A stretch of 44,644 bases of DNA from a virus. Its lineage: Duplodnaviria > Heunggongvirae > Uroviricota > Caudoviricetes. The notes beneath the pieces were generated by a model. The model did not search any database, was not told where the DNA came from, and worked only from the letters and a program-made list of their open reading frames with translations. The first letter of the stretch is position 1, and each line of letters begins with the position of its first letter. The stretch lies in IMG/VR virus record IMGVR_UViG_2568526230_000009, one strand, 5' to 3'. Shown here piece by piece: positions 32,181-39,089 of this stretch. The position numbers and the translations under genes were made by a program.

Positions 32181-32404
32181 TCATCTGGTGGTGAGCTGTG
32201 CAGGGTTGGCGTAACCGGCTAAGTGAACCCGGCGCTTCCACAGAAGCCCCCACACAGCCCACCATAATGCGAATGTGGCCGTGCCTAACACATAAAAAAA
32301 CCGCTAACGCGGCTATGCGTCACTTAGATATCCGGGACGCCAATCCCGGCAACCGATTTTGCGGCTGCGCGGAAACTATAGCCCCGGACTTTTTCTAAGT
32401 CAAT

Positions 32405-36985: not shown

Positions 36986-37252
36986 TTAAGCTGCTTCCGT
37001 TTTAGGCAAGCTGTCATCTGGGTTTGGGTAAAGATCCGGTCTAAGATCATGAGGGGTCACGCGCCATTCAAGAGCTTCAGATGTGCGCAAAACCTCTTCA
37101 CCGGGAACCCGTCCTTTGAACCAGAGGCTTACCGTTTGTGGTTTTTTCCCTAATCGCCGCCCTAACTCGGATTGACTCATTACGGAAAGAATTTTGTCTT
37201 GCAGTTGTTTATCCATATGGACTCCTTGTGTCCGCGTCATCATTACAAACAA
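36986..37252 (-). CDS. Cro-like HTH regulator (YdaS-like)
   Basis: 88 aa; SQSELGRRLGKKPQTVSLW helix-turn-helix; divergent from repressor gene. Confidence 0.55.
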   Translation of the reverse strand: MFVMMTRTQGVHMDKQLQDKILSVMSQSELGRRLGKKPQTVSLWFKGRVPGEEVLRTSEALEWRVTPHDLRPDLYPNPDDSLPKTEAA

Positions 37253-37299
37253 TAACTGTAATTACAAATTATATTTGCAATGCTCCCTACAATTAAACC
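37253..37299. promoter_or_regulatory. Rightward operator/promoter region
   Basis: 47 bp divergent intergenic region with repeated ATTACAAA and palindrome TGTAATTACA. Confidence 0.45.
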
Positions 37300-37728
37300 T
37301 TGTATCCTTACGGTATGAACACAAAAACGAAAAACATGGCTTTTGCTAGCCGACTACAACGGATTCTAAAAGACTTAGGCTGGTCTCAATCTGAGTTAGC
37401 TCGCCATATTGGGGTTACGGCTCAATCAGTTCAGGCATGGTGTAATGGGGTAACTCCAAGAAAAGATAAATTAGACAAGCTAGCAAAAGTGACCGGATAC
37501 CCTGTTCATTTTTTCTTCATGAATGAAGGGGAATATTTGGATGAATCCACACTACACCCGGGTAATTACAATCAAGAACTAACCCCGCAAGAACAGGCTC
37601 TACTGCAACTATTCAGAGGACTGCCTGAGAGCGAAAAAAATAAATTAATCAATGAGCTAAAAGAAAAAAGAGAGCACTTCGATCTACTGCTAAAAGAACT
37701 ACTTGAAGCCAAAAACCAGACAAAATAG
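37300..37728 (+). CDS. CI-like repressor (XRE-family HTH)
   Basis: 142 aa; WSQSELARHIGVTAQSVQAW helix-turn-helix; divergent from cro-like gene. Confidence 0.6.
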   Translation: MYPYGMNTKTKNMAFASRLQRILKDLGWSQSELARHIGVTAQSVQAWCNGVTPRKDKLDKLAKVTGYPVHFFFMNEGEYLDESTLHPGNYNQELTPQEQALLQLFRGLPESEKNKLINELKEKREHFDLLLKELLEAKNQTK

Positions 37729-37814
37729 TTCAGTTCAAATTTCCAGGCCAGCCGCTGCTGGCATGCAACTTTCCCCTAACACAAAAACACCTTTACACAG
37801 TGAATATTTTTTTG

Positions 37815-37895
37815 CCCCTCACTACAAATTATTTTTTAAAAACACATTGACCATTACAAATACAAATTGTAAAGTCACTTTCATCAACAACGCTT
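37815..37895 (+). promoter_or_regulatory. Leftward operator/promoter candidate
   Basis: ACTACAAATTAT and CCATTACAAATACAAATT motifs like the rightward operator; TTGACC-17 nt-TAAAGT. Confidence 0.4.
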
Positions 37896-38738
37896 ACCCA
37901 GCGGCAGTTGTTCAGAAACACGTTCTGACAGCCGGAAAGACGGCACCAAATTTTGCGCGTCGGCGCCAACACGGTGACAGAGGGAAAGACTTCACCGGCA
38001 TATGGCACATGTGTCGAAGCGGTCTGGATGGAAGCGGAGCCTTAACGCGTTGTCTCCATAGCAGGTAGCCGGAATGTGCAAGCCACAGCCAGGTATGAGC
38101 GATTGATTCACCATCAAGGCGATACGGTGTGACCACCAGGGAAGAGTCCTGGCTACAACACGAGAGCGCACTTCATCGACTCAACTTTGAGCTTTGTCGT
38201 TAAATTTTGAAATGGCGGAGTGCGCTCCCGGTTGTGGTGAACAGGTGTTTAACGGGAACTCCCTGCCCGTTACCCGGTTCGATTCCGGGCGCCCATCATC
38301 AATTTGCTGTGTTTAGTCTTTGCCCAGTCCGCACGATGGGCCATTTTTTCACACAGCCAGGTTTTATCGCTGTGCCTGAGTCCCCAACAGGAGAGGCCAA
38401 ACCCGCAGCGTGACACCAGGGAAAGACCGGAGGAAGTACCACGCCTGACCAGCGTTGACCATGAGCCTGACCAGCTCAAAACAGGAAAGACCAGCCCGGG
38501 CCTGACCAGCCCTGTACGGTCGTAATGGAAACATAACGACGCCGGAAACGTAACCGGCACCCTTTAGATAGCAAAAGACCCGCACAAGGCGGGCCAGTTA
38601 CCCCGAACGGCGACCAAACCATTCGGATTTATCACAAGTGACCAAACTTGTGATGAGGAAAGACCAACGACACTGACGCTATGGAAGCTGATCAATATTC
38701 GCTGATCGGCTCTGAGTATACATTACCAAGGAGTCGCT

Positions 38739-39059
38739 ATGGAAGCGCGCACCATCCCAGTAACACTCTTTATTCATTATGCAACTTCAACTTTCAGCCA
38801 CGAAAAGCTGCTTGTTGCGACTGTTGATATGTCAAAAAATTTTCCAGACAGGTACATCCTTCTGGAAAGCCGCGAAATTGAAATTACCGTTAACCAGCCC
38901 GAGCCAATCGACATCATCGGTTTACAGGTCGAGCAACTGCGTGAACAAAAACAGAAAACAGTCGCCGACGCCCAACAGCGTATTGCTGCTATCGATGACA
39001 AAATCCAGCAGTTACTTTGCATCGAATACACGCCAGATACCGATGAGCTCCCCTACTAA
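38739..39059 (+). CDS. Hypothetical early protein
   Basis: 106 aa; AAGGAG SD 7 nt upstream. Confidence 0.4.
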   Translation: MEARTIPVTLFIHYATSTFSHEKLLVATVDMSKNFPDRYILLESREIEITVNQPEPIDIIGLQVEQLREQKQKTVADAQQRIAAIDDKIQQLLCIEYTPDTDELPY

Positions 39060-39089
39060 AAACCACTGACCTGTAATGAGGAAAGACCA

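Follow-up and report, generated by a model that had tools for sequence, protein, structure and literature searches.

A non-coding interval downstream of the prophage repressor

The window analysed here, 44,644 nucleotides from a virus of the Caudoviricetes (IMG/VR record IMGVR_UViG_2568526230_000009), contains a 1 kb stretch poor in open reading frames (37729-38738) downstream of the prophage repressor gene. A sequence-only reading of this interval had found no convincing coding frame, had listed short repeats and hairpins, and had suggested an antitermination site, a non-coding RNA or a decayed gene. The first point was borne out: nothing in Pfam or PHROG matches the longest ORFs of the interval, of 121, 96, 74, 73, 68, 59 and 48 aa, and no reading frame stays open throughout 107 homologues of its most conserved part, hereafter element A. 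RefSeq carries no annotation across 37729-38738 among the E. coli genomes listed with the region. Among 40 related leaders none holds an intact gene in the interval, and the repeats are conserved in relatives, the reverse on both counts of what the sequence-only reading had named as its refutation. With no protein-family match and no conserved frame, a decayed gene in the protein sense is false; the idea holds for a tRNA remnant alone, described below.

This control region, annotated as empty, is kept in ~450-475 of 5426 complete E. coli genomes, mostly at ≥99% identity, and many of the carriers are ST131-type clinical isolates. The only isolated phages with the same leader are the 'Stenotrophomonas' phages BUCT708/709.

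A covariance-model scan for tRNAs and non-coding RNAs, as proposed in the sequence-only reading, found nothing in the interval at gathering thresholds: across the whole window, only isrK, C4, c4-a1b1 and three tRNAs were returned, all of them outside it. Permissive scanning added sub-threshold matches within the interval to RprA (37.4 bits) and to tRNA-Sec (19.3 bits); neither element A nor the antisense sRNA predicted below drew a match when the region and three homologous loci were scanned permissively.

The PL promoter and its 5' leader

A promoter scan of 37150-39150 returned a sole sigma-70-like site, the early-left promoter PL (plus strand, 37847-37875), with TTGACC at 37847-37852, a 17-nt spacer and TAAAGT at 37870-37875. 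It is overlapped by OL operators, ATTACAAAT-type repeats at 37821-37840 and 37853-37872, so that operators and promoter together occupy 37821-37875; the same operator repeat recurs in the cro/cI intergenic region, at 37242 and 37261. Transcription would start near 37882. In relatives with unrelated operators, the sequence CATCAAC(A/G)(A/G)CG...GTTGTTCAGAA is conserved from just past the -10 box.

The 5' leader of the predicted PL transcript (plus strand, 37882-37994) begins with a conserved stem-loop (37885-37910). Two hairpins whose GAAAGA hexaloop never varies come next: GCCG-GAAAGA-CGGC (37931-37944) and GAGG-GAAAGA-CTTC (37980-37993). Across loci these hairpins share the consensus YTGACA-stem-GAAAGA-stem-ACC, with 16 distinct stems and a closing pair that is always G-C, and BUCT708-type relatives keep them with compensatory stem changes. 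Beyond this pair, no other plus-strand GAAAGA hairpin was found in the window, and none on the strand of the PR operon.

A loop that stays invariant on 16 stems and has a conserved 5' flank is what one would expect of a protein-binding hairpin, and GAAAGA resembles GAAAA and GAAGA, the loops of lambda boxB. The leader might accordingly be an antitermination region, with the GAAAGA hairpins serving as boxB-like N-type sites, or with a put-like 5' leader passing the terminator of module D (see below). A terminator between PL and the first gene makes a read-through device plausible, and putL of phage HK022 also lies directly downstream of PL (PMC9378689). We nevertheless judge this explanation improbable. 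The candidate boxB of the sequence-only reading, CCCGC-ACAAG-GCGGG, is present (at 38579-38593, 1 nt from the 38580-38594 given there), but its role in antitermination is not supported: the stem covaries among relatives, the loop is not conserved in length or sequence (ACAAG, CGAA, CGCTAG, CGTTAG), and what stays constant is a 5'-flanking A-tract, i.e. a U-tract on the minus strand. A constant minus-strand U-tract with a variable loop indicates that this hairpin behaves as a minus-strand intrinsic terminator, and on these grounds its identification as boxB was rejected.

The first two genes served by PL offer no evidence for antitermination. No arginine-rich, N-like protein was found by Pfam or PHROG among the first two PL gene products: the first gene encodes an acidic product of 106 aa, neither product has a Pfam match, and PHROG assigned one to unknown function and the other to an exonuclease. 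Lambda N works via nut sites in both operons, and HK022 has both putL and putR, the former consisting of two long stem-loops (~70 nt) from about +2. Here, the PR operon has no GAAAGA hairpin, and a search for a paralogous leader copy in the PR transcript gave a best local alignment score of 23, whereas shuffled sequences averaged 21.8 and reached 26 at most. Blastn of 37600-38900 against the phage collection also returned no HK022 record. By these sequence comparisons, with neither a second copy in the PR operon nor a match to HK022, an HK022 put-like element seems unlikely.

Element A is a conserved structured RNA domain

Downstream of the GAAAGA hairpins lies element A, a structured RNA domain of ~175 nt (plus strand, 37995-38168) defined by conservation and covariation. 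Its helices comprise P1, a 9-bp hairpin with a GCA loop; P2, a variable hairpin with a loop usually of the UUCCUUG type, followed by the invariant stretch GGUAGCCGGAAUGUGCAAGCC; P4a, whose UCACC loop can pair with a downstream GGUG to form a pseudoknot; and P5, a hairpin with a GAAGAGA/U loop. An exact 21-mer of element A was found in at least 120 IMG/VR contigs, with 107 distinct cores, and in 19 species-representative genomes, all from Enterobacteriaceae except one MAG.

Across 35 sequences, the proposed pairing held in 94.6% of cells, against 85.2% in shuffles and at most 52% in slid controls. Twelve pairs changed on both sides, and the covariation score (0.302 vs 0.130) was reached by 0 of 500 shuffles. 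When 4227 Rfam covariance models were run on the window, SPN1S, D6 and the E2348/69 prophage, none matched element A (E ≤ 1-10). Element A is an undescribed, covarying structured RNA without an Rfam entry. By-eye likenesses to 4.5S RNA, to the 3' end of 16S rRNA and to CsrA-binding motifs were discarded as too weak. The tRNA genes that flank element A are all in the same orientation as the element; this association and its invariant junctions suggest that it may serve as a scaffold for binding protein or RNA, or in processing, and that it would travel with phage tRNA/sRNA cassettes.

Element A is followed by hairpin B (plus strand, 38161-38230), an inverted repeat of 92% complementarity closed by a 12-nt stem (CGAGAGCGCACT / AGTGCGCTCCCG) and present in the MFE fold of the whole plus-strand RNA. 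Hairpin B is a movable module, lying downstream of A in this phage family (+95..+171 from the A anchor by nhmmer) and upstream of it in epsilon15-like phages; 24 other loci place it at -142..-70.

A tRNA remnant and a module homologous to the 3' end of RprA

The T-arm noted in the sequence-only reading is present (CCCGG-TTCGATT-CCGGG, 38273-38289) and is the intact part of a tRNA remnant (plus strand, 38231-38297), where it is preceded by a 6-bp hairpin, AACGGG/CCCGTT. The remnant has neither a paired acceptor stem nor an anticodon arm; it was not called by ARAGORN nor recognised as a cloverleaf by Rfam RF00005, and its best Rfam model was tRNA-Sec at E = 1.2. The segment is missing in BUCT708-type relatives, and other phages have at this position a real tRNA-Arg(UCU), or a tRNA-like gene annotated as 'pseudogenic tRNA-Gly'.

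Directly beyond it, module D (plus strand, 38304-38349) consists of TTGCTGTGTTTAGTCTTTG at 38304-38322, a stem GCCCA/TGGGC (38322-38326/38337-38341) and a T-run at 38344-38349. A terminator scan also found this site (38327-38341), whose stem in the window has only 5 pairs. By blastn against 28 Gb of sequence, 38304-38352 is 83.7% identical to the last 49 nt of annotated rprA (E = 7e-5), with matches to annotated rprA in essentially all E. coli genomes. The Rfam RprA model (RF00034, 108 positions) matched 38241-38351 at E = 0.022, below its gathering score of 70, and only its 3' third aligned convincingly. These sequence comparisons make module D a homologue of the host sRNA RprA over its last ~49 nt, the part that corresponds to the processed form RprAproc. 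Its 31 distinct homologues keep GCTGTGTGTAGTCTT(T/G)G and differ in the terminator stem. Module D also occurs in related leaders that have no element A, and is missing from some relatives (L134, L175 and L177). Our literature search found no paper on RprA-like RNAs.

A predicted antisense sRNA on the minus strand

On the opposite strand, folding, a covariance model and covariation together delineate a predicted antisense sRNA of ~136 nt (minus strand, 38708->38573). From its 5' end it would contain a stem-loop, SL1 (38707->38662); a single-stranded UUUCCUC (38661->38655); SL2 (38654->38631), with the loop UUGGUC; SL3 (38627->38602), with UUUGGUC in its loop; and a terminator hairpin (38595->38577) with a U-tract at 38576->38573. 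SL2 is the 9-bp perfect inverted repeat that the sequence-only reading had correctly placed at 38631-38654 (ATCACAAGT at 38631-38639 and ACTTGTGAT at 38646-38654, plus-strand loop GACCAA), and the terminator hairpin is its 'boxB'; a terminator-like site was reported here by the terminator scan as well. The RNA has three UUGGUC motifs; in the predicted fold, hairpin loops leave two of them open, and base pairing within the 5' stem-loop occupies the other.

The predicted -10 box, TATACT (minus strand, 38715-38720), faces the region where ribosomes would bind for the 106-aa gene. TATAAT or TATACT occurs at this fixed offset (14-21 nt from the ATG reverse complement) in each of 40 distinct related leaders, in about half of them as an extended TGnTATAAT. 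The -35 region is poor in all 40, the window has no correctly spaced TGn, and the promoter is absent from the promoter-scan output.

Covariance-model searching found one full-length copy of the antisense sRNA (85-130 bits; 94.2 bits in the window) at this position in each locus with a leader of the 106-aa gene. In an alignment fitted to that covariance model, pairing held in 91.3% of cells (78.5% in shuffles), 25 of 35 pairs changed on both sides, and the covariation score was 0.442 against 0.212, with 0 of 500 shuffles reaching it.

These inverted repeats are bound to fold on the plus strand as well (MFE -40.1, z = -4.09), the minus-strand promoter is weak by consensus, and the leader is certainly transcribed from PL if the downstream genes are expressed. 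Hairpins and repeats could then act in cis only, within the plus-strand mRNA leader, on stability, processing or translational control of the 106-aa gene, with no minus-strand sRNA at all. Strand asymmetry makes this rather unlikely. In the window the minus strand reaches an MFE of -57.3 kcal/mol (z = -6.77), and it is the more stable strand in 25 of 25 distinct relatives, by ~16 kcal/mol on average (means -60.1 vs -43.9). Among the predicted minus-strand pairs, 176 of 1032 (17%) are G.U, which become A.C on the plus strand; several positions most often have U.G or G.U, where the plus strand would be mismatched. On the minus strand, every relative has a run of 4-7 T after the terminal hairpin; on the plus strand only some do. 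The fixed placement of the -10 hexamer in 40 of 40 relatives likewise argues against an exclusively cis-acting leader and for the predicted minus-strand sRNA.

Identity with the EPEC prophage sRNAs PasA-D was considered and rejected: the pas genes lie at other prophage positions and their probes had no match. E2348/69 has one locus of the A/D type.

Start-associated motifs match the predicted antisense sRNA

The repeats of the interval are real and far above chance, with some coordinates shifted by 1-3 nt from those first reported. The motif GGAAAGAC(C) occurs on the plus strand at the five positions already listed in the sequence-only reading (38420, 38484, 38657, 39080 and 42255), all of which are correct, and further at 37934, 37983 and 42746; on the minus strand it occurs at 29616, 33994 and 36414. 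These 11 matches in the window compare with 1.3 expected, and 0 of 100 shuffles gave as many. A second motif, GCCTGACCAGC, has five matches in the window (0.55 expected), at 38443, 38465 and 38500 on the plus strand and 34015 and 36438 on the minus strand; its three copies in the interval had been noticed, with a start 3 nt too far along (38446).

A longer motif, GAGGAAAGACC, has five exact copies (0.04 expected), all on the transcribed strand of the early operons. One lies in the interval, at 38655-38665 on the plus strand, antisense to the single-stranded region of the predicted sRNA. The identical 11-mers elsewhere lie in the translation-initiation regions of the genes starting at 39090, 42264, 36411 (minus) and 33991 (minus), so that in 4 of 5 copies the ATG of an annotated gene follows 1-2 nt downstream. 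The two minus-strand junctions (34025->33991 and 36448->36411) share one layout: a stop codon, CGCCTGACCAGCG, 10-12 nt, then GAGGAAAGACC(R)ATG.

UUUCCUC is an anti-Shine-Dalgarno sequence, and together with UUGGUC it is complementary to GAGGAAAGACCAA, the start motif of at least four early genes; UUGGUC is also complementary to the GACCAG of CGCCTGACCAGCG, the motif that follows two stop codons. Judged by sequence, UUGGUCUUUCCUC of the sRNA is complementary to GAGGAAAGACCAA over 11-15 contiguous bases at four gene starts. The longest stretch stems from a likeness within the early-left operon: 26 nt at 38646-38671 are 88% identical to 39069-39094, which gives 15 contiguous complementary bases between the sRNA and the start region of the exonuclease gene. 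In relatives with the variant seed UUUCCUA, no start-site copies were found in the sequence examined.

The plus strand at 38417-38561 resembles a series of orphan intergenic junctions, with GGAAAGACC at 38420 and 38484 alongside the GCCTGACCAGC copies; the same motifs form real junctions elsewhere in the window. Within this array, a hairpin GCCGG-AAACGTAA-CCGGC (38541-38558) occupies the site of a GAAAGA hairpin in relatives. A natural CRISPR protospacer also lies there, at 38428-38459.

Junction motifs of this kind, lacking a gene in between, resemble scars left by deletions, and in BUCT708 an ATG follows the last motif (ACG in the window), with a 37-aa ORF annotated there. The interval could on such grounds be the wreck of one or more protein genes, for example N-like or rex-like, with the repeats as functionless leftovers. 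This we regard as highly improbable. Besides the absence of protein-family homology and of a conserved frame, orphan arrays like 38417-38561 also occur in relatives, with indels that are not multiples of three; RNA helices are preserved by covariation in both element A and the antisense sRNA; and the region as a whole is retained, mostly with little change, in the E. coli genomes counted above. A recent loss of the start codon after the motif at 38655 (ATG->ACG, 38668) was rejected, as ATG is absent at this site in most relatives and ACG is the usual codon there.

A model of RNA-level control in the early-left operon

The suggestion of a non-coding RNA is thus strongly supported, and for more than one RNA: the covarying element A, the module resembling the 3' end of RprA and the covarying minus-strand sRNA. 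On balance, we take 37729-38738 to belong to the PL operon of a Rac/lambda-like prophage, for which it would supply the promoter and a long non-coding leader, probably with RNA-level roles on both strands.

In this model, PL would fire once repressor leaves OL, producing an RNA from near 37882 that carries, in order, the two GAAAGA hairpins, element A, hairpin B, the dead tRNA and module D. Most transcripts would be expected to stop at a moderate intrinsic terminator at ~38349, giving an RNA of ~470 nt that could in turn yield an RprA-like 3' fragment; taken over its full 471 nt, this plus-strand RNA shows only a modest stability excess over shuffles (z = -1.94). Transcripts that read through would continue into the 106-aa gene, the exonuclease gene and the xis/int genes. 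Opposite the ribosome-binding site of the 106-aa gene, the small minus-strand promoter would drive the ~136-nt sRNA, ending at the 'boxB' hairpin. The likeliest task of this sRNA would be to bind start regions and lower translation of early genes, such as those for the exonuclease and an excision-module protein, in cis on the leader and in trans on other start regions. The orphan motif copies in the leader could serve as decoys after PL fires.

A bolder version, which we offer as speculation of doubtful standing, has part of early control run by RNA alone: a constitutive sRNA clamps the start motif shared by genes of both early operons, the abundant terminated leader acts as an inducible sponge that lifts the clamp, and the RprA mimic enters the Hfq network. 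Element A would represent a new class of structured RNA, moving as a cassette among unrelated temperate phages (lambdoid, epsilon15-like and P1-like), with a function in tRNA-linked processing, catalysis or anti-defence.

Were the model to hold, the interval would contain three RNA families absent from Rfam 15 and undescribed in the literature that we found. Element A would be a widespread structured RNA moving with phage tRNA genes across phage types, and in module D a phage would have copied the active 3' domain from a stress sRNA of its host, possibly tapping into the Hfq/RprA network at induction. An antisense sRNA matched to a ribosome-binding motif would explain why that motif is repeated, and would provide a simple, testable account of how lysogens might silence recombination and excision genes post-transcriptionally.

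Comparison with known systems

The early part of the leader recalls lambda nut and HK022 put in having hairpins within the first ~100 nt past PL and purine-rich GAAAGA loops, and differs from them in having no N-like protein among the first two PL gene products, no PR-operon counterpart and no blastn match to HK022. Among the structured RNAs associated with phages, ROOL and GOLLD are large and have tRNA genes as neighbours; 3'ETS-leuZ is a tRNA-linked sRNA. Element A is like the former two in being a conserved structured RNA of diverse temperate phages, co-oriented with adjacent tRNA genes; it is, however, much smaller (~175 nt), confined to phages of Enterobacteriaceae and unmatched by any Rfam model, and its locus is modular, with a permuted hairpin B and an optional tRNA. 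Module D follows a tRNA in the manner of a 3' external transcribed spacer, as in 3'ETS-leuZ.

RprA and module D share UGCUGUGU(G/U)UAGUCUUUGCCC, after which both have a short GC stem and a U-run. Processing of RprA yields a form made up of its last 47 nt, which is a regulator in its own right (PMC9262595), and module D has the conserved GCUGUGUGUAGUCUUUGCCC and the terminator that characterise RprAproc. The 5' two-thirds of RprA are absent, including the central pairing region at nt ~30-70 that acts on narP (PMC9262595) and the hdeD seed stem-loop at nt ~31 (PMC5861431); the tRNA remnant lies upstream instead. Host rprA is a stand-alone gene next to ydiL, whereas module D lies away from that locus; here it would end the PL leader RNA of a phage, and in other phages a tRNA transcript. 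Lambda itself makes an Hfq-dependent sRNA, LPR1/PreS, at the terminator tL2a of its early-left operon (bioRxiv 10.1101/2024.10.31.621285). The predicted leader RNA likewise has an sRNA-like 3' end (GC stem and poly-U) at an early-left terminator and would be expressed only with PL active; it has no sequence similarity to LPR1/PreS, would terminate within the untranslated leader, ahead of the first gene, and with its structured 5' domain would be far longer.

The start motif is reminiscent of the SAS/ESAS elements of Cluster K mycobacteriophages, conserved 11-13-nt Shine-Dalgarno motifs just upstream of some start codons, accompanied by another conserved motif a little further upstream (PMC3203893). 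In the window, GAGGAAAGACC stands 1-2 nt before four ATGs, and at two of these CGCCTGACCAGCG precedes it by 10-12 nt. Neither the sequence nor the host is related to those of SAS, and orphan copies of the motif are concentrated in the PL leader with a complementary predicted sRNA adjacent; we know of no motif-complementary sRNA for SAS.

The nearest parallels to the antisense sRNA are P1/P7 c4 (RF01695, with a1/b1 targets in RF03163), P22 sar and lambda OOP, all short structured antisense RNAs from the control region of a temperate phage. A genuine C4 (75 bits) and isrK (80 bits) are found elsewhere in the window, at 32184-32368; in 37200-39200, the C4 model had no match at E ≤ 10 and isrK reached only 14 bits. 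As in c4-type RNAs, motifs that appear exposed are complementary to repeated sites overlapping ribosome-binding sites, and an intrinsic terminator is predicted at the end. The antisense sRNA differs from c4, sar and OOP in carrying three UUGGUC motifs and an anti-Shine-Dalgarno strand, opposite a PL leader. Whereas c4 RNA acts on an antirepressor gene, the putative targets here are the copies of a start motif found in both early operons.

Repeats and coding capacity of the gap

The sequence-only reading had described 37729-38738 as lacking a convincing coding frame and as dense in repeats and hairpins. Gap ORFs indeed returned zero matches in Pfam and PHROG scans, and RefSeq annotates no feature there in the E. 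coli genomes listed. Among 5426 complete E. coli genomes, 475 carry the region, most of them with ≥99% identity. All listed repeats and hairpins were present in the sequence, at slightly shifted coordinates. GGAAAGAC was recovered at all five positions claimed for it and occurs 11 times in the window (1.3 expected; 0/100 shuffles), whilst the GCCTGACCAGC triplet starts at 38443, 38465 and 38500 and is joined by two minus-strand copies, giving 5 in the window against 0.55 expected.

The gap is an early-left operon leader

The window is a lambdoid/Rac-like prophage adjoining the tRNA genes glyW-cysT-leuZ. Its integrase gene abuts this host operon (43643-43944, minus strand), whose 3' trailer is the known sRNA sponge 3'ETS-leuZ. 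To the left of the gap lie a minus-strand YdaS/Cro-like gene and a plus-strand cI-like HTH repressor gene; to the right, all on the plus strand, are genes for a 106-aa protein (phrog_2479), a 738-aa exonuclease (phrog_2489), Gp157, a DUF4224 protein and the integrase. This arrangement identifies the gap as the PL promoter and early-left operon leader. The sole sigma-70-like site found by promoter scan, TTGACC-17-TAAAGT (37847-37875, plus strand), is overlapped by two operator repeats, and the same repeat is found between cro and cI. In relatives with unrelated operators, conservation starts right after the -10 box, at CATCAAC..., as expected if the transcript is the conserved object.

A nut/put site is not supported, as there is no PR-side partner and no N-like gene among the first two PL genes (Pfam/PHROG), and blastn of 37600-38900 against the phage collection gave no HK022 record. 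Rfam scans rejected a c4 RNA identity for the gap element. Elsewhere in the prophage, full-score Rfam matches to C4 antisense RNA (75 bits), isrK (80 bits) and the c4 a1/b1 target element (53 bits) cluster at 32184-32381 (minus strand), adjoining an ORF6N-domain gene, and so the lambdoid prophage seems to contain an antirepressor immunity module of P1/P7 type.

A type I-E CRISPR spacer of E. coli strain 702/18 (1511-1542 of the locus, in an array adjoining iap/cas2/cas1) matches leader positions 38428-38459 at all 32 nt (100% identity), and the 43-nt BLAST match of this strain recurs in strain 23CRST013. On the minus strand, the protospacer is accompanied by an ATG PAM, which is of a functional type. 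Natural E. coli CRISPR immunity has thus sampled exactly this non-coding region.

The plus-strand leader is modular

Within the first ~110 nt of the leader are a stem-loop and a pair of hairpins whose GAAAGA loop is invariant; the hairpin unit reads YUGACA-stem-GAAAGA-stem-ACC across loci, with 16 different stems. Downstream lies element A (37995-38168, plus strand), initially found through 72-77% matches to intergenic stretches without annotation in the epsilon15-like SPN1S and Tyrion, in PAT1 and SopranoGao, and in the P1-like phages D6 and SJ46. At least 120 IMG/VR contigs (107 distinct cores) share its invariant 21-mer, as do 19 species-representative genomes, all of them Enterobacteriaceae bar one MAG. 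The only isolated phages with this leader, BUCT708 (OM816834) and BUCT709 (OM816835), are labelled Stenotrophomonas phages; they share synteny with the E. coli prophage across the immunity and early-left region (72% identity in the 68% of the leader query that aligned), and this host assignment looks doubtful, element A being otherwise confined to Enterobacteriaceae.

Element A homologues share no conserved reading frame and match no Rfam family. We derived a structure by hand, made up of P1, P5, the outer pairs of P2 (which is variable) and P4a, whose loop forms a pseudoknot with downstream sequence, and tested it on 35 sequences: 94.6% of cells pair, versus 85.2% when shuffled and ≤52% with slid partners, and 12 pairs are altered on both sides. 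Covariation strongly supports this structure. tRNA genes lie next to A in 38 of 125 loci, every time in its orientation. Hairpin B lies 3' of A in the window and 5' of A in epsilon15-like phages, showing that modules are shuffled as units. For the predicted whole RNA (37882-38352), the folding energy is -165.9 kcal/mol (z = -1.94).

At two related loci (L143 and L177), a ~110-nt long hairpin replaces element A ~400-560 nt upstream of the homologue of the 106-aa gene, and its 3' arm contains CGCTCTTTTTGA, similar to the consensus of the boxA antitermination motif. In phage D6, a sub-threshold STnc100 sRNA match (1457-1577 of the locus; 39.6 bits, E = 1e-5) is flanked by tRNA genes and precedes element A by ~850 nt, so that this locus clusters several small RNAs with tRNAs.

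Hairpin B is followed by a tRNA-like remnant, whose T-arm (38273-38289) is intact, as the earlier reading had noted, and whose acceptor pairing is missing. The remnant is missing from BUCT708 relatives, and its slot holds a genuine tRNA-Arg or an odd tRNA-like gene in other phages. The tRNA-like genes in this slot at loci L005 (3230-3342) and L177 (~2600-2745) have normal acceptor, D and T arms, with ~40-55 extra nt inserted around the anticodon; that of E2348/69 (113 nt) is labelled 'pseudogenic tRNA-Gly' by RefSeq. Such tRNAs may contain an intron or be deliberately altered.

The last module, D, consists of TTGCTGTGTTTAGTCTTTGCCC and a terminator, and is 83.7% identical to the last 49 nt of host rprA (E = 7e-5); full RprA identity was rejected, the Rfam RprA score of 37.4 bits being below threshold. 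RprA is naturally processed to a form comprising its last 47 nt, which is active in its own right (PMC9262595). GCUGUGUGUAGUCUU(U/G)G is retained in 31 distinct phage homologues of D, among which the terminator stem has been swapped several times, and D is also found in PL leaders of remoter relatives without element A.

A predicted antisense sRNA on the minus strand

The hairpin CCCGC-ACAAG-GCGGG, confirmed at 38579-38593, had been likened to a boxB. However, its stem covaries (CCCGC/GCGGG versus CCCAC/GTGGG), its loop varies in sequence and length, and an A-run is conserved on its 5' side, which is instead the signature of a minus-strand intrinsic terminator; a terminator scan also reports it on that strand. 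Upstream of this terminator, a minus-strand TATAAT/TATACT stands at a fixed offset in 40/40 distinct related leaders, opposite the ribosome-binding site of the 106-aa gene, with an extended TGn in about half and a poor -35 region.

The predicted sRNA (38708 to 38573) comprises SL1, a single-stranded UUUCCUC, SL2, SL3 and the terminator. SL2, with loop UUGGUC, is the confirmed 9-bp inverted repeat (38631-38639/38646-38654), and the SL3 loop contains UUUGGUC. The MFE is -57.3 (z = -6.77), versus a much weaker -40.1 for the complementary plus strand, and the minus strand is the more stable in 25/25 distinct relatives (means -60.1 versus -43.9), with G.U making up 17% of its pairs. RNAalifold recovered SL1 and SL2 with compensatory changes, and a covariance model found exactly one full-length copy, at the same position, per locus with the leader of the 106-aa gene. 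In an alignment fitted to that model, 25/35 pairs are altered on both sides and 91.3% of cells pair, versus 78.5% when shuffled (0/500 shuffles match the score).

CGCTATGGAAGC is present twice (38677-38688 and 38735-38746, spacing 58 nt). The upstream copy lies within a lineage-specific 22-nt insertion that extends SL1 and gives rise to a 48-aa ORF (38681-38827), which overlaps the 106-aa gene at its start and shares the frame of the 37-aa ORF annotated in BUCT708.

The predicted sRNA is complementary to a start-associated motif

GAGGAAAGACC occurs 5 times versus 0.04 expected, and every copy is on the strand that is transcribed in an early operon. In four cases the ATG of an annotated gene follows after 1-2 nt (exonuclease, DUF4224 gene and two PR-operon genes), and at two of these junctions CGCCTGACCAGCG just follows the preceding stop codon. 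The fifth, at 38655, is antisense to the single-stranded segment of the predicted sRNA, whose complementarity reaches 15 contiguous bases at the exonuclease start region and 11-13 at the other three starts. Its UUGGUC motifs match GACCAA/GACCAG within the same cassettes, and seven GACCAR motifs fall inside a 220-nt stretch of the leader. At 38420-38510, the orphan motifs represent junction cassettes without an intervening gene. A recently dead gene start at 38655 was rejected, since in most relatives no start codon follows this copy. Amongst the options originally raised for the gap, a non-coding RNA is supported, in the form of several predicted elements, and an antitermination site is not; a decayed gene holds for the tRNA remnant but not for a recently dead gene start.

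Proposed mechanism and comparison with known systems

From these features we infer the following roles for the predicted RNAs. Upon induction, PL would transcribe the leader; many transcripts would stop at D, yielding a ~470-nt RNA whose 5' body is structured and whose 3' end is RprA-like and probably binds Hfq, and the remainder would read through into the genes for recombination and excision. The antisense sRNA, with its promoter distant from the operators, would be expected to be expressed in the lysogen, where pairing with the shared start motif may damp leaky early-gene translation. Once PL is active, leader motif copies could titrate the sRNA. These predicted leader RNAs are directly testable.

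The specific RNA families of this leader are absent from Rfam 15, and a literature search found no description of them. Each element nevertheless belongs to a familiar kind, be it an sRNA derived from a phage leader terminator, an antisense RNA of the immunity type, start-associated motifs or a structured RNA linked to tRNAs. A precedent is known from lambda, whose LPR1/PreS sRNA arises at a pL-operon terminator (bioRxiv 10.1101/2024.10.31.621285), and the GAGGAAAGACC/CGCCTGACCAGCG junctions match the pattern described for start-associated sequences of Cluster K mycobacteriophages (PMC3203893). The proposed action of the sRNA would be similar in logic to P1 c4, P22 sar and lambda OOP, and a stereotyped start motif together with a dedicated predicted sRNA complementary to it is, as far as we could find, a new combination.
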